The notes below the pieces were generated by a model, which was not told where the DNA came from, searched no databases, and was given only the letters and a program-made list of their open reading frames with translations. DNA of 64,000 bases from a virus (Duplodnaviria > Heunggongvirae > Uroviricota > Caudoviricetes), in the IMG/VR virus record IMGVR_UViG_3300045597_000172, one strand, 5' to 3'. A program made the translations under genes and the position numbers. Positions 23,827 to 31,290 of this stretch are shown piece after piece. Each line of letters begins with the position of its first letter. Position 1 is the stretch's first letter.

Positions 23827-23900
23827 GCTTGTTTAGCTCAGTTCGGTAGAGCATCTCCCTCGTAAAGAGAAGGTCACAAGTTCAAATCTTGTAACAAGCA
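23827..23900 (+). tRNA. tRNA-Thr (anticodon CGT)
   Basis: Acceptor gcttgtt/aacaagc. D-stem gctc/gagc. Anticodon arm tctcc-ctCGTaa-agaga. T-arm acaag-ttcaaat-cttgt. 74 nt, no encoded CCA. Confidence 0.65.
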
Positions 23901-23909
23901 TTTAACCAT

Positions 23910-23997
23910 GGAGAAATACTCAAGTGGCTAAAGAGGATGCATTCGAAATGCATTAGACGACTAACGTCGCACGTGGGTTCAAATCCCACTTTCTCCT
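23910..23997 (+). tRNA. tRNA-Ser (anticodon CGA), class II
   Basis: Acceptor ggagaaa/tttctcc. Anticodon arm atgca-ttCGAaa-tgcat. 19-nt variable arm. T-arm gtggg-ttcaaat-cccac. Confidence 0.65.
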
Positions 23998-24109
23998 TTG
24001 CAATCAAATTATGATTGTGTGGATAATTCCGCAACTATCCAATCAAATTAGAAAAAGATGCCGTCCTGCGAAACGGTAAATGTGCTATTTTGTACATCAT
24101 CTTCTAATA

Positions 24110-24173
24110 ACAACTGTAAGCTAATGGAAAACTGCTACAAACAGCAATATCGGTTCGATCCCGGTCAGTTGTT
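24110..24173 (+). ncRNA. degenerate tRNA-like element (64 nt)
   Basis: Acceptor acaactg/cagttgt and canonical T-arm atcgg-ttcgatc-ccggt. D and anticodon arms are not foldable. Confidence 0.3.
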
Positions 24174-24242
24174 TTAATATCAACTTCTTCTTCGAAATGA
24201 AACATCCAGAAGTGATATACTAAGAAATACATTCGTTACATC

Positions 24243-24315
24243 GAGGTATTCGGCAAGTGGTCTAAGCCATTGGACTTTCTATCCAACACCGCAGGTTCAA
24301 ATCCTGCATACCTCA
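24243..24315 (+). tRNA. tRNA, anticodon TTC (Glu?), atypical D-arm
   Basis: Acceptor gaggtat/atacctc. Anticodon arm ttgga-ctTTCta-tccaa. T-arm gcagg-ttcaaat-cctgc. 3-bp D-stem with 11-nt D-loop and U37, so identity is less certain. Confidence 0.5.
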
Positions 24316-24534
24316 TTTCGTGAGTTGATTAAACATTAGATGATTGTTTTCACATTTTTCATAACAGTCTGCCTGTTAATCAAGCCAGATACGTACAATC
24401 TGGTATCCTACAAGATGAAATGTGTGAGTAGGACAAACGAAAATTATGCAGAATTGTTTATAACTCCGTGATACATGTTTTTAACGAAACATGATATTGC
24501 TCAATGTTGGAAAATTTAAACAATTTTGTATTTC

Positions 24535-24619
24535 GGCTAGTTAGCGAAGTCTGGCTAAACGCAACGGACTGTAAATCCGTCCTCTTTCGAGTTCCTTGGT
24601 TCGAATCCAAGACTAGCCA
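24535..24619 (+). tRNA. tRNA-Tyr (anticodon GTA), class II
   Basis: Acceptor ggctagt/actagcc. Anticodon arm acgga-ctGTAaa-tccgt. 14-nt variable arm. T-arm cttgg-ttcgaat-ccaag. Confidence 0.7.
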
Positions 24620-24648
24620 TACAAAAAATATAATAAGGAGACCTAAAT

Positions 24649-24960
24649 ATGAAAATCGAACCATCTGATCTATCCAAGATTCTAACAAACGCAGATGATG
24701 AACAACTCATTCTTGTAGTAAAAACAGCAGCAGAACCAAATGTTGACATTTTAGATAACGAAAGCGATACTATTGAAGATGACGAACCAGTGATTAACAA
24801 TAATCCAGACGATGGAAGATTTTCCTTACTAATCGGAAACATTGTTAAAAATCAATCTGATTACGTAAAAGATTTACTAACCCTCGGTCAGTGGAAAACA
24901 TTATTTGAAGATTTAACCGATGAAAGTCTCATTGAAACACTACGTACCTTTACAAATTAA
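24649..24960 (+). CDS. small acidic protein encoded inside the tRNA island
   Basis: Strong RBS aataaggagacctaaat-ATG. 103 aa with many D/E residues. Confidence 0.45.
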   Translation: MKIEPSDLSKILTNADDEQLILVVKTAAEPNVDILDNESDTIEDDEPVINNNPDDGRFSLLIGNIVKNQSDYVKDLLTLGQWKTLFEDLTDESLIETLRTFTN

Positions 24961-24979
24961 TCAATCGCTGATTGATTAT

Positions 24980-25063
24980 GTCTAAGTGGCGGAACTGGCA
25001 GACGCGCTGGACTTAGAATCCAGTGTTTTTAATAACGTGTAGGTTCAAATCCTACCTTAGACA
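24980..25063 (+). tRNA. tRNA-Leu (anticodon TAG), class II
   Basis: Acceptor gtctaag/cttagac. Anticodon arm ctgga-ctTAGaa-tccag. 15-nt variable region. T-arm gtagg-ttcaaat-cctac. Confidence 0.7.
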
Positions 25064-25083
25064 TTTCCAAAAATTAAATTATT

Positions 25084-25156
25084 GGTCCCATAGTTCAATT
25101 GGTTAGAATATTGGCCTGTCACGCCGAAGATTCGGATTCGAATTCCGATGGAACCG
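25084..25156 (+). tRNA. tRNA-Asp (anticodon GTC)
   Basis: Acceptor ggtccca/tggaacc (one C-A mismatch). Anticodon arm ttggc-ctGTCac-gccga. T-arm tcgga-ttcgaat-tccga. Confidence 0.65.
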
Positions 25157-29183: not shown

Positions 29184-29255
29184 TGCTCAGTAGTTCAGTG
29201 GTAGAATAATTGACTGTTAATCAAGAGGTCGTAGGTTCGAATCCTACCTGAGCAG
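29184..29255 (+). tRNA. tRNA-Asn (anticodon GTT), third copy
   Basis: Acceptor tgctcag/ctgagca. D-arm gttc-agtggta-gaat. Anticodon arm attga-ctGTTaa-tcaag (A-G at the stem base). T-arm gtagg-ttcgaat-cctac. Confidence 0.7.
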
Positions 29256-29533
29256 TTTAAAAAACTATGGAAAGCAAACCATTTAAACTCGGTTATTGAT
29301 TACTGTAGGTCAACAATTTTGTACTATATGCATCAAAGACCCACCGTGCAAAATCCAGCACAAACGAGTCTGAGACATCATTTATTCCATTGATATGTTA
29401 GTCCAACTGACAATTCCGGAAACGGACTAAAATCCGTTGTAGATTAGAATCGTTATTGGATGAGATTACGAAACCGGTCCAATGAATAATGTATCAAGAT
29501 GGTAACAAGGAATAAATACATCAAACAGACGGT

Positions 29534-29605
29534 ACATCTGTAAGCTTACTGGTGAACTATTGGTCTCCAAAACCAAAATTGTTGGTTCGAATCCAACCAG
29601 ATGTA
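29534..29605 (+). tRNA. tRNA-Trp (anticodon CCA)
   Basis: Acceptor acatctg/cagatgt. Anticodon arm ttggt-ctCCAaa-accaa. T-arm gttgg-ttcgaat-ccaac. D-arm imperfect but same architecture as the second Trp gene at 44559. Confidence 0.6.
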
Positions 29606-29766
29606 TAAATCAAATGGTTATATCAATCGTTTGATTCTAGTACCAAAGTCAGCAATAGACTATAACAGCCGTAAAAATAGACGCATACTAACGTAATTAC
29701 TGTATAAAAATCAAACGAAGCATAGTAATTTGATGTGTTATTAAGGTGTAGGATAACATTTATTTC

Positions 29767-30092
29767 GGGCTTGTTTTGGATTCGACAGGGCATTAACGCT
29801 TTAATCTCGTCAACCAGTTAAATATAACTGCAAAAGAAAACACTTTAGTTGCTGCCTAGTTTAACCACTAAATAGCAACACCTCAACCCACTGGCAAAGC
29901 CGTGATAACCAGTGGTTTCAAACACGGATAAGTTAATTATGTTCCATTAACATAATTAATCGAAAACTAAAATGGTTAATGAATGTTTGTCATTAGCAAA
30001 ACTCATTATAAAAAAAATAATTAATGACTATGACGTAAGAATGATTACGGTAAGTGATGTCTTGGACGCGGGTTCGATCCCCGCCAAGTCCA
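29767..30092 (+). ncRNA. ssrA: tmRNA (SsrA), about 326 nt, predicted tag (A)AKENTLVAA
   Basis: 5' end GGGCUUGUUUUGGAUUCGACAGGG (tmRNA hallmark GGAUUCGACAGGG). 3' tRNA-like domain gcggg-ttcgatc-cccgc plus acceptor caagtcc pairing with 5' gggcttg, including a G3-U70 wobble (Ala identity element). Conserved UUAAAUAUAACU precedes resume codon GCA at 29830. Frame GCA AAA GAA AAC ACT TTA GTT GCT GCC TAG ends at 29859. Confidence 0.7.
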
Positions 30093-30284
30093 TAAATCAA
30101 AAAAAAATCGTCAAAAATATCTTGACCAAACTTATATGTTAACATATAAGAGTAGTAGGACCGCATACGCGGGATCCTGAGTACAACTTAGTCTAAAGAT
30201 ACCAAGTTGGAATCAAGCAGAGTCAGCTGCTAAGTCAGACAATTTGAACTACTAATTTTACGATATTTATTAATATCGTATTTC

Positions 30285-30363
30285 GGACTCGAAATCAACA
30301 ACCCTAGGAACGTTGATTCCATGAATAGCTGTTAGCCAGATGGTTTGAATCCATCCGAGTCCA
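30285..30363 (+). ncRNA. degenerate tRNA-like element (79 nt)
   Basis: Acceptor ggactcg/cgagtcc (7/7). T-arm gatgg-tttgaat-ccatc. Middle has a tcaac/gttga hairpin with a 12-nt loop but no anticodon arm. Confidence 0.3.
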
Positions 30364-30394
30364 TTGCACCAAATAAAATAAGAAAGCTGGAAAT

Positions 30395-30955
30395 ATGATG
30401 ACCGATAACATTAAAAAGATTCCACAAATTCCATTGTTACACGATATTCCCTTCAATCAAGAAGACAAAGATCTAATCGTTCAACTATCATTACAAGGTG
30501 TAATTGCATCACTCCACAATGACCCAAAATACGGTTTGTTTTTATCAATCAAGAAACCTATTCGCGGCATGTTGTCAGTACAAATTCTCATCGAAAAAGC
30601 AACTCATGGAAATCTCAAAAAAAGTATTCTTGATAGTTGCAAAAATGCACCTGAACAATTATCAAAAATGCGAGATGTGAAATATTTGGATAGTTTAATT
30701 AATAACATCGAAAACTTCCATTTCATTCGCAAATATGACGAACCTTATTTTAAAGAAAACATTCAGCCATTACTAAACAATCACGCTGAGACAGAAAAAA
30801 TAGATAATAAAATTAATCAATACGAATCTGACACTGGCAAAAAAATTGATCTTACCAAACCTGATTTTCAAAAACGTTTAAACGAAATCCGAAAGATACA
30901 ACGACGAAAAATTCATTTTCAATGTAATCTTATTCGCATTGCTAACAGTATCTAA
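30395..30955 (+). CDS. hypothetical protein
   Basis: RBS aagaaagctggaaat-ATG. 186 aa. Confidence 0.45.
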   Translation: MMTDNIKKIPQIPLLHDIPFNQEDKDLIVQLSLQGVIASLHNDPKYGLFLSIKKPIRGMLSVQILIEKATHGNLKKSILDSCKNAPEQLSKMRDVKYLDSLINNIENFHFIRKYDEPYFKENIQPLLNNHAETEKIDNKINQYESDTGKKIDLTKPDFQKRLNEIRKIQRRKIHFQCNLIRIANSI

Positions 30956-30986
30956 AATTAATCACGGTAATCTATTACCGTGTTAC

Positions 30987-31059
30987 GCAGTTTTAGCTCA
31001 GTAGGTAGAGCATCTGTCTTGTAAACAGAAGGTCACAAGTTCGAGCCTTGTAAACTGCA
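30987..31059 (+). tRNA. tRNA-Thr (anticodon TGT)
   Basis: Acceptor gcagttt/aaactgc. D-arm gctc-agtaggta-gagc. Anticodon arm tctgt-ctTGTaa-acaga. T-arm acaag-ttcgagc-cttgt. Confidence 0.75.
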
Positions 31060-31140
31060 TTGCGGTTAATCCGCAATCTAATTGTTTTCTTCAATAGTAA
31101 ATTATTCCTTTTCCGATATGGTAAATCCATATCGTTTTAT

Positions 31141-31227
31141 GGACAGTTGGCCGAGTCTGGTTTATGACGCTGGCTTTGAACACCAGTTGTGAGCAATCAC
31201 ACACAGGTTCGAATCCTGTACTGTCCG
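31141..31227 (+). tRNA. tRNA-Ser (anticodon TGA), class II
   Basis: Acceptor ggacagt/actgtcc. Anticodon arm ctggc-ttTGAac-accag. Long variable arm with tgtga/tcaca stem. T-arm acagg-ttcgaat-cctgt. Confidence 0.6.
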
Positions 31228-31242
31228 TCCAAATATCTTAAA

Positions 31243-31290
31243 TAGACCTACTCTAATTGAGTGGGCCTATTTTTTACGAAAGCGAAGCGA
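31243..31290 (+). terminator. rho-independent terminator closing the tRNA island
   Basis: atagacctactc-taatt-gagtgggcctat followed by ttttt. Confidence 0.55.

Follow-up and report, generated by a model that had tools for sequence, protein, structure and literature searches.

What does a 7.5-kb island of genes for stable RNAs do for the DNA that carries it, and what kind of DNA is this? The island occupies positions 23827-31290 of a stretch of 64,000 nucleotides (nt) from the IMG/VR record IMGVR_UViG_3300045597_000172, and it is this whole stretch that we call the window. The element measures at least 237 kb, of which the window represents 64 kb, and proteins of the island also occur on a contig of 236,971 nt. 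Our work makes it reasonably likely that these genes form an accessory translation-support island of a large, uncultivated, plasmid-like extrachromosomal element. The identity and integrity of the genes, the conserved location of the island in related elements and the selection acting on the tag of its transfer-messenger RNA (tmRNA) are established here, and we infer that the RNAs are expressed, processed and charged and that the element benefits from them.

The genes of the island and its place in related elements

The island is real. ARAGORN finds 15 tRNA genes at 23826-31231, all of them on the + strand and with exactly the anticodons listed in an earlier note on this DNA. The same note had pointed to a second cluster, and both ARAGORN and Rfam place it at 44385-44632, again on the + strand: it consists of tRNA-Pro(TGG) (44386-44459), tRNA-Ala(TGC) with a G3:U70 pair (44466-44538), and tRNA-Trp(CCA) (copy b, 44559-44630). 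Far from most calls being rejected as pseudogenes, the two programs agree on all 18 tRNAs of both clusters, and the scores with the Rfam covariance model RF00005 range from 42.6 to 75.6 bits at a gathering threshold of 29. The 15 island tRNAs, the Pro/Ala/Trp cluster and the tmRNA were thus each found by two independent methods.

The first two genes of the island read rare codons: tRNA-Thr(CGT) (23827-23900, 68.2 bits) reads ACG and tRNA-Ser(CGA) (23910-23997, 56.7 bits) reads UCG, the rarest threonine and serine codons of the element, respectively. They are followed by tRNA-Glu(TTC) with an unusual U37 (24243-24315, 59.5 bits), tRNA-Tyr(GTA) (24535-24619, 58.3 bits), tRNA-Leu(TAG) (24980-25063, 61 bits), tRNA-Asp(GTC) (25084-25156, 62.6 bits), a first tRNA-Asn(GTT) in which C33 replaces the near-universal U33 (copy a, 25441-25513, 66.9 bits), tRNA-Ser(GCT) (25780-25868, 49.8 bits) and tRNA-Lys(TTT) (26365-26437, 62.5 bits). 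Farther downstream lie two more tRNA-Asn(GTT) genes (copy b, 28013-28084, 74.6 bits; copy c, 29184-29255, 71.5 bits), tRNA-Trp(CCA) (copy a, 29534-29605, 54.9 bits), tRNA-Thr(TGT) (30987-31059, 75.6 bits) and, as the last gene, tRNA-Ser(TGA) (31141-31227, 42.6 bits). A CCA end is encoded after none of the 18 tRNAs nor after the tmRNA, and the triplication of tRNA-Asn and the duplication of tRNA-Trp are as previously described. The three tRNA-Asn genes share 72-88% pairwise identity (72-77% between copy a and the other two, 88% between copies b and c, with compensated stem changes in copy c), and the two tRNA-Trp genes share 75%; they are therefore old paralogues rather than recent duplicates. 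The tRNA paralogues differ by compensated changes. The anticodon loop has 7 nt in each of the 17 tRNAs examined and is fully canonical in 15 of them. At near-invariant positions, three changes were observed: C33 in copy a of tRNA-Asn, U37 in tRNA-Glu, and C33 in the tRNA-Arg(TCG) (21235-21309) of a related locus, L038.

The earlier note had undercounted the tRNA-like genes, since Rfam adds two (25973-26058 and 28305-28370) and ARAGORN one (22540-22611), all on the + strand. The last of these lies just 5' of the island, past the terminator of the gene for an LPXTG-anchored surface protein; its anticodon loop comprises 6 nt and its acceptor stem 8 bp, the T-loop is non-canonical, and the folding z-score is -4.9. 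The gene at 25973-26058 (42.2 bits with Rfam, found by ARAGORN at low threshold) resembles a class-II tRNA with a long variable arm, and has an 8-bp acceptor stem and a 6-nt anticodon loop. The gene at 28305-28370 (37 bits with Rfam) is only 66 nt long, has a reduced D-arm and an anticodon loop of 6 or 8 nt, and ends 35 nt before an 87-codon open reading frame (ORF). All three lack the 7-nt anticodon loop, and they are therefore either pseudogenes or non-decoding RNAs.

A one-piece tmRNA is encoded on the + strand between the tRNA genes (29767-30092 according to ARAGORN, 29767-30095 according to Rfam). It matches the Rfam model RF00023 over its full length (model positions 1-374) with 105.9 bits at a threshold of 47. 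Its acceptor stem, GGGCUUG/CAAGUCC, gives a G3:U70 pair as read from the alignment, i.e. the alanine identity element, which is thus present in the tmRNA and in tRNA-Ala alike. The tag frame GCA AAA GAA AAC ACU UUA GUU GCU GCC UAG, with GCA as the resume codon, encodes AKENTLVAA and ends with a hydrophobic residue and two alanines, as tmRNA degradation tags do. The tmRNA of the related locus L012 scores 103.5 bits and encodes the tag AKRNTLVAA. Over the nine codons, the two tag frames differ by four synonymous changes (Asn, Thr, Leu and Ala) and a single replacement (Glu to Arg). As four of the five codon changes are synonymous, the comparison argues that the tag peptide is translated and under purifying selection. 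SmpB was detected neither among the proteins scanned nor in the precomputed Pfam annotation of the fetched loci. A scan of sequence collections with the 3' end of the tmRNA yielded unrelated contigs only. In three unrelated metagenome contigs (L029 and L032, i.e. JGI contigs Ga0116193_1022066 and Ga0208826_1015269, and L021) a tmRNA stands within an array of 14 tRNAs (3.4 kb, tag ANTDTLVLAA) or is flanked by tRNAs; the layout with a tmRNA inside a tRNA array, as seen in L029 and L032, thus recurs elsewhere.

Comparison with relatives shows where the island is conserved and where it is not. In L012, whose flotillin is 82% identical, the tmRNA, the adjacent tRNA-like RNA and tRNA-Ser(TGA) are found in the same order directly upstream of the flotillin gene, whereas the Asn, Trp and Thr tRNA genes are missing and other ORFs are present instead. 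One of these (3077-3634) directly precedes the tmRNA, at a place taken by tRNA genes in the window, and encodes a protein with a SocA/Panacea domain of the antitoxin type. L038, with a primase-helicase of 49% identity, carries nine tRNA genes after a gene for a large surface protein: Ala(CGC), Thr(CGT), Val(CAC), Gln(CTG), Pro(CGG), Gly(TCC), Tyr, Arg(TCG) and Asn. Finally, L040 (primase-helicase 39% identical) shares the backbone of primase-helicase, ATPase, SNF2 and MBL hydrolase genes and has no tRNA in 22.7 kb. The island is therefore a conserved locus of the family with variable content, an accessory locus with rapid gene turnover.

The family itself was found only in metagenome assemblies. 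A search at near identity with the island and 25 kb around it against phage and plasmid records returned short tRNA matches only, and the family is absent from INPHARED, PLSDB and IMG/VR (scans with the ATPase and the family alignment) as well as from the GTDB representative genomes (ATPase scan). The closest homologues of the flotillin in isolates come from Ligilactobacillus (47-52% identity), and one homologue with 50% identity lies in an ordinary chromosomal context resembling that of Lactobacillaceae. Together with the LPXTG and MucBP motifs of the surface proteins, these homologues suggest that the element probably lives in Lactobacillaceae.

Codon supply, host defence and the nature of the carrying element

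If the island supports translation, its tRNAs should be seen against the codons of the element. Among 16,787 codons from 58 ORFs on the + strand, 51.8% are read by the 14 anticodons of the two clusters. The earlier note had regarded the set as tuned to the AT-rich codon usage, and this holds for part of it: Asn, Lys, Asp, Glu, Tyr and the A-ending Thr, Ser, Pro and Ala codons are served, with Asn and Lys each making up 8.7% of all codons. Asn is also the most over-used class (86.7 as compared to 46.1 per 1000, a ratio of 1.88) relative to a 21-kb chromosomal fragment from Lactobacillaceae that serves as a proxy for the host. The claim fails for ACG and UCG, which account for only 8% of the Thr and 5% of the Ser codons and which are three- to fourfold depleted relative to the same, weak proxy: the first two tRNAs of the island read these codons and no others. 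Similarly, Trp makes up 0.8% of the codons, yet it has two tRNA genes. In L038, the island (19326-21859) even opens with five C34 tRNAs (Ala CGC, Thr CGT, Val CAC, Gln CTG and Pro CGG) that read its rarest G-ending codons, each contributing only 6-12% of the codons for its amino acid. With dedicated tRNAs for ACG and UCG, the set does not simply reflect AT-rich usage; rare codons that end in G are provided for as well.

These observations can be combined in a model for the island. The co-oriented genes would be transcribed in two or three long units, bounded by the terminators near 23550, 27250 and 31260. The RNase P of the host would then cut at the 5' side of each cloverleaf. In Bacillus, precursors that lack CCA are cut at the 3' side by RNase Z and finished by the CCA-adding enzyme, and since no gene of the window encodes CCA, this route is the one expected for the 3' ends here. 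The released RNAs would be 15 canonical tRNAs (18 with the second cluster) with 14 anticodons for 11 amino acids, one tmRNA, several tRNA-like RNAs and small mRNAs. The tRNAs would lessen the dependence of the element on the tRNA pool of whichever host it resides in: the most-used classes (Asn with three genes, Lys, Asp, Glu, Tyr, and A-ending Thr, Ser, Pro and Ala) would be topped up, and C34 tRNAs would be added for the rare ACG and UCG codons, which hosts with reduced tRNA sets may read poorly. The tmRNA would be charged with alanine owing to its G3:U70 pair and, with SmpB of the host, would rescue ribosomes stalled on broken mRNAs by adding AKENTLVAA.

Several observations weigh against a role in translation support. 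There is no tRNA for Ile, Leu-UUA/UUG, Gln, Phe, Val and Gly, so that heavily used codons such as those for Ile (8.1%), Leu-UUA and Gln are left out. Codon classes served by a tRNA have a median of 35.1 per 1000 as compared to 20.8 for those unserved, a difference that is not significant (one-sided Mann-Whitney test, p = 0.056), and the comparison of supply and demand rests on a single 21-kb chromosomal fragment as the proxy. Moreover, the set of tRNAs changes fast from one relative to the next, the anticodon loop is abnormal in three tRNA-like genes, and C33 in tRNA-Asn and U37 in tRNA-Glu could be defects rather than adaptations. Finally, the tRNA complement considered here is that of the 64 kb of the window and thus of a part of the element only.

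The alternative that survives best, which we regard as somewhat unlikely, is that the island is an anti-defence reserve: its tRNAs would replace host tRNAs cut by anticodon nucleases or toxins upon entry of the element, RtcB would reseal cleaved molecules, and the tmRNA would clear stalled ribosomes. As known from PrrC, gamma-toxin and colicin E5, the classic targets of anticodon nucleases are Lys UUU, Glu UUC, and Tyr, Asp and Asn tRNAs with G or queuosine at position 34 and U35, and the island is rich in exactly these, with Asn present in three diverged versions. To our knowledge, the C34 tRNAs for rare codons and the Trp, Pro and Ala tRNAs are not among the recognised targets, which speaks against this idea, as does the fully canonical anticodon loop in 15 of 17 tRNAs. 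On the other hand, C33 in copy a of tRNA-Asn and in the tRNA-Arg of L038 and U37 in tRNA-Glu resemble features of nuclease-evading phage tRNAs (van den Berg et al., PMC10264068). The literature lends further support: specific phage tRNAs are reported to let phages evade retrons and other defence systems (PMC11555353), and the tRNA arrays of giant plasmids from M. avium are regarded as putative anti-defence systems (PMC12803027). An RtcB RNA ligase (PF01139, E = 3.9e-60) is indeed encoded on the + strand at 56429-57646, followed by phosphoesterase genes; however, it lies 25 kb downstream and does not adjoin the island. Judged from the sequence, RtcB is a probable functional companion that would reseal cleaved tRNAs, its link to the island being putative. 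The RtcB gene is preceded by a UDG gene (54970-57646 for the two), and farther downstream there are genes for a NUDIX protein, a metallophosphoesterase and a DHH phosphoesterase (L004, 14171-17803); this region may be an RNA-repair toolkit. Anti-defence and translation support overlap, and both may act together.

The view of the earlier note, a tRNA island of a jumbo phage that is matched to the AT-rich codon usage of the phage rather than to that of the host, appears improbable to us. It is true that the U34 tRNAs match the preferred codons ACA, UCA, CCA, GCA, GAA and AAA and that the triplicated tRNA-Asn serves a heavily used codon class. Islands of this kind are indeed present in huge phages (PMC7162821), PHROG families are matched by some of the proteins, several of these families being of unknown function, a domain resembling T4 gp30.3 is encoded downstream, and a quarter or less of the element was covered. 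However, AT-tuning is contradicted by the tRNAs that read the rarest G-ending codons of the window and, to a greater degree, of L038, and the assignment to a phage was not supported by the genes: among about 50 proteins encoded in the window and in some 20 kb of flanks, out of an element of at least 237 kb, searches of PHROGs and Pfam gave no capsid, portal, terminase or credible tail match and no other credible structural or packaging gene. The sole "tail" match, to a tape-measure family (E = 3.4e-4), falls on an LPXTG-anchored surface protein. The absence of the family from IMG/VR and INPHARED also argues against a phage.

What the window does encode points to a plasmid-like element. All genes are on one strand, and the GC content is 34.5%. 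An Alp7A/ParM-like actin (824-2038) was found with Pfam and as a PHROG "partition protein" (E = 3.5e-29). The 795-amino-acid protein encoded at 12990-15377 is probably a replicative primase-helicase: its structural model, with a pLDDT of 88, matches the primase-helicases of SaPI5, of poxviruses (D5/E5) and of African swine fever virus (E = 7e-14). This protein has no Pfam or PHROG match, no tblastn match in phages or plasmids, and no sequence match in the PDB with the family profile, and it defines a metagenome-only family of 52 clusters. With the actin and the primase-helicase, active partition and replication as required of a plasmid would both be represented, the functions being assigned from the fold. 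Moreover, the region 33063-41776 contains in this order genes for a MucBP/LPXTG adhesin, a small ORF, a VirB11/CpaF-like ATPase, two membrane proteins and a 122-amino-acid protein. This is the order at the start of the conjugation operon of a B. subtilis plasmid from the pLS20 family, with 38% identity for the ATPase and 25% for a membrane protein (E = 5e-27). Relaxase, VirD4 and VirB4 were not seen in the window. The partition actin, this module and the sortase-anchored adhesins speak against a phage. In our view, the element is plasmid-like and may be conjugative or a phage-plasmid, with its designation as a phage being unproven.

The remaining genes of the window encode a MoxR ATPase, a VWA protein, a ClpB-like ATPase, a UvrD-like helicase, an NS-type nuclease, RadC, flotillin, the VirB11/CpaF-like ATPase already mentioned, a SNF2 helicase, RNase H, a GNAT acetyltransferase, UDG, RtcB and MgsA, as well as two sortase-anchored or MucBP surface proteins, a 1125-amino-acid LPXTG-anchored protein and a 1423-amino-acid MucBP adhesin. 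The MoxR-type AAA ATPase, the VWA protein and the ClpB-like ATPase, which has two rings, form a block (2513-8007) that is conserved in L014, L037, L038 and L039 and adjoins the genes for the UvrD-like helicase and the NS nuclease. A relationship of the VWA protein to Ro60 was considered and rejected, as a sequence search of the PDB gave no match. Upstream of the nuclease gene lies a 47-codon ORF for a ribbon-helix-helix protein (11235-11376); its counterpart in L039 (8161-8379) weakly matches the Omega repressor of inc18 plasmids.

Embedded genes, spacers and short tRNA-like elements

Five small ORFs are interleaved with the RNA genes of the island, as the earlier note had stated, and each is preceded by a good Shine-Dalgarno sequence; none matches a Pfam or PHROG family. 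They are all on the + strand. The first encodes an acidic protein of 103 amino acids (24649-24960), has a good Shine-Dalgarno sequence, starts 29 nt past tRNA-Tyr and ends 18-19 nt ahead of tRNA-Leu. The second encodes 229 amino acids (26549-27238), or 251 if translation starts from the GTG at 26483, and is followed by a GC-rich intrinsic terminator (27241-27262). The 118-codon ORF at 27380-27736 has a counterpart with 61% amino acid identity in L012, and the 186-codon ORF at 30395-30955, which starts 31 nt past a tRNA-like RNA and ends 31 nt ahead of tRNA-Thr, has one with 27%. Since both are syntenic in the diverged L012, at least these two are real genes. The fifth ORF (28406-28669) encodes an acidic protein of 87 amino acids. 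Two more ORFs on the + strand precede the island: a 26-codon zinc-ribbon ORF (23456-23536; MNCPYCGTLLDETEDNQICPRCGAEL), and a 64-codon hydrophobic ORF (23628-23822) that ends 4 nt upstream of tRNA-Thr(CGT). The zinc-ribbon ORF is followed by an intrinsic terminator (23543-23565), the upstream limit of the island transcription unit. A terminator-like hairpin (31247-31272) closes the island after tRNA-Ser(TGA). These positions, together with the terminator at 27241-27262, suggest transcription of the island as two or three units. A scan of the island for consensus promoters did no better than chance, with 39 sites as compared to 38.6 expected in shuffled sequence.

Most spacers of the island fold better than dinucleotide-shuffled sequences, with z-scores down to -6.8. 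Those at 25515-25778, 26059-26363, 30096-30394 and 31060-31139 have z-scores of -4 to -6.8, and hairpins stand directly after or before several tRNAs. Large RNAs of the GOLLD or ROOL type were considered for these spacers and rejected, as there was no Rfam match.

In addition to the tRNA genes, the window contains a group of short RNAs that consist of little more than the top half of a tRNA. We scanned for a T-loop of the form U-[UG]-N-R-A-N-N with its stem stacked on an acceptor-type stem, 12 contiguous base pairs in total, and found 23 sites on the + strand and a single one on the - strand of the window, as compared to 0.05 in shuffled sequences. Sixteen of the 23 + strand sites are tRNAs or aberrant genes already called; the other seven are new elements of 43-79 nt, starting at 3882, 11094, 15370, 18094, 24110, 30285 and 44272, all on the coding (+) strand, in which a short linker takes the place of the D and anticodon arms. 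Two of them lie in the island. The element at 24110-24173 has a 7-bp acceptor stem, a canonical T-arm with the loop TTCGATC and no anticodon arm. The 79-nt RNA at 30285-30363, between the tmRNA and the 186-codon ORF, has the acceptor stem GGACUCG/CGAGUCC and the T-loop UUUGAAU; in L012 (4601-4689) it is conserved with both stems compensated, GGACUCG/CGAGUCC having become GGACCCG/CGGGUCC and GAUGG/CCAUC having become GUUGG/CCAAC.

Relative to the stop codon of an ORF, the starts of the five elements outside of the island range from 8 nt ahead of it to 15 nt past it. They were compared in syntenic gaps of relatives with 48-66% protein identity (L014, L037, L038 and L039), with the pairs tabulated by a script. 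The element at 3882-3925, 1 nt past the stop of the MoxR-like ORF, has orthologues in the same gap in all four relatives examined, so that this gap holds an element in 5/5 genomes, the copy in L014 being a reduced 10-bp hairpin. The one at 11094-11145 lies 6 nt past the stop of the UvrD-like ORF and is conserved with compensatory changes in L037 and L038. In the element at 15370-15418, the 5' acceptor strand and the TGA stop of the primase-helicase gene (15375-15377) overlap, and there is an orthologue in L014. The element at 18094-18160, located between the stop of an ORF (18078) and an intrinsic terminator (18166-18190), has orthologues in L014, L038 and L039. The element at 44272-44321 lies 11 nt past the stop of the ORF 43907-44260 and 5' of the second tRNA cluster. 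The gap after the 228-codon ORF holds an element in 4/4 genomes. While the stem sequences vary, the stacked helix has 12 bp (7+5, 6+6 or 8+4) in every copy that passes the strict scan, the T-stem always ends in two G-C pairs beside the loop, and GG is usually part of the linker. In 220 kb of family loci, some of which overlap, we count 18 short elements on the coding strand and two on the other strand; there are none in 159 kb of unrelated control loci that hold many true tRNAs. Rfam has no family for them, the best result being a sub-threshold tRNA match (22.8 bits, 3882-3925), and a literature search for equivalents gave organellar analogues only; no case from a bacterial plasmid or phage turned up. 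Remnants of integrase att sites were rejected as an explanation, since both acceptor strands are present and co-vary, and so were intrinsic terminators, as most of the elements lack a U-tract and one lies upstream of a separate terminator.

For bacterial RNase P, an acceptor/T-arm stack with an elbow mimic is the minimal substrate, and by this analogy we suspect that the short elements are processing signals or protectors of 3' ends. It is tempting to speculate, and we would put this forward only tentatively, that the element family uses its tRNAs together with these mimics of the top half (12-bp acceptor/T-arm stack, canonical T-loop, GG linker) as punctuation, with RNase P and RNase Z cutting the one-strand transcripts near stop codons, as a mobile-element counterpart of mitochondrial tRNA punctuation. 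At 15370-15418, where the element overlaps a stop codon, an RNase P-type 5' cut would remove this stop and create a non-stop mRNA, and the tmRNA of the element might exist for such products. A more radical version, in which many of the cloverleaves and tRNA-like elements serve primarily as RNase P and RNase Z cleavage signals that split transcripts into mRNAs and in which decoding is secondary, seems highly doubtful. The ORFs of the island are tightly boxed by tRNAs or tRNA-like RNAs with gaps of 18-35 nt, and the seven coding-strand elements without an anticodon, five of them near ORF stops, the constant helix length and compensatory changes of their orthologues in the same gaps, and their strand bias and absence from the controls all fit such a role. 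However, the canonical tRNAs with intact loops and the selected tag show that decoding and ribosome rescue are themselves under selection, and most intergenic gaps of the window have no such element. Finally, it is hardly credible that the tRNAs are decaying passengers, i.e. hitch-hiking copies or remnants of integration sites with little current function: the three abnormal anticodon loops, the strongly differing tRNA content of relatives and the long non-coding spacers of the island would agree with decay, but the 15 canonical genes score 42.6-75.6 bits and have intact stems, paralogue differences are compensated, the tmRNA tag is under purifying selection, the tRNA-like elements retain both acceptor strands, unlike att-site remnants, and the spacers are unusually structured.

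Comparison with known systems

Islands of tRNA and tmRNA genes on very large mobile elements are already documented, and the one described here mostly adds an example. The conjugative megaplasmid pMP7017 of Bifidobacterium breve carries 20 tRNA genes, of which 17 are highly transcribed, and a highly expressed tmRNA gene near the replication gene; the tRNAs have diverged from those of the host, and the authors proposed that they adapt the pool of tRNAs to the plasmid's codon usage, rare codons included (PMC10832533). Our element resembles pMP7017 in being large and extrachromosomal and in having, near replication genes, a tRNA cluster that serves only some of the amino acids and is accompanied by a one-piece tmRNA. 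In contrast, we found no similarity between the two at the protein or DNA level, our element probably has a low-GC Firmicute and not an actinobacterium as its host, the tag is shorter and different (AKENTLVAA here, NTVSSSRFTLAA there), the genes extend over 7.5 kb with ORFs and tRNA-like RNAs between them, and relaxase, VirD4 and VirB4 genes were not seen in the window.

Huge phages and large putative plasmids also carry many tRNAs that differ from those of the host, a tmRNA and genes for the ligation of tRNAs that host defences have cut (Al-Shayeb et al. 2020, PMC7162821). With these, our element shares the many tRNAs, the tmRNA, an RtcB for cut tRNAs, a size of more than 200 kb and its occurrence in metagenomes only. 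It differs in that we found no phage hallmark gene and, within the 64 kb of the window, neither a tRNA synthetase nor SmpB nor a ribosomal protein, and in that the family is not in IMG/VR. A third group are the tRNA array units on mobile elements of Firmicutes, Acidithiobacillus and Mycobacterium, which have co-oriented, dense tRNAs with variable content and a suggested anti-defence role (PMC4758250, PMC5966550, PMC12803027), as is the case here. Such a unit was defined by Tran et al. as having at least 20 tRNA genes at no less than 2 per kb (PMC4758250). Our island reaches this density (15-17 genes in 7.4 kb, 2.0-2.3 per kb) and has fewer genes (15, or 17 with the Rfam-only calls).

The example comes from an element family without relatives in culture, among annotated sequences or in databases, and this family probably resides in lactic acid bacteria. 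The recurring tRNAs for rare G-ending codons argue against a mirroring of AT preference, and point to independence from the host pool or to anti-defence. The tRNA regions of the phages T4 and T5 likewise have tRNAs interleaved with small ORFs and small stable RNAs, and their processing involves RNase P of the host; these phages are lytic, have Gram-negative hosts, lack a tmRNA and bear no sequence relationship to our element. The short elements, which we consider the part most deserving of attention, are a candidate new RNA motif outside Rfam. They compare best with the t-elements of plant mitochondria and with mitochondrial tRNA punctuation, in which tRNA-like structures beside protein genes could set mRNA ends via RNase P and RNase Z (PMC1920247, PMC3790967); those systems are organellar, whereas the processing proposed here is putative and would take place in bacteria. 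If the short elements are indeed signals for RNase P and RNase Z, they would represent an organisation of gene expression that has not been described for bacterial plasmids or phages.

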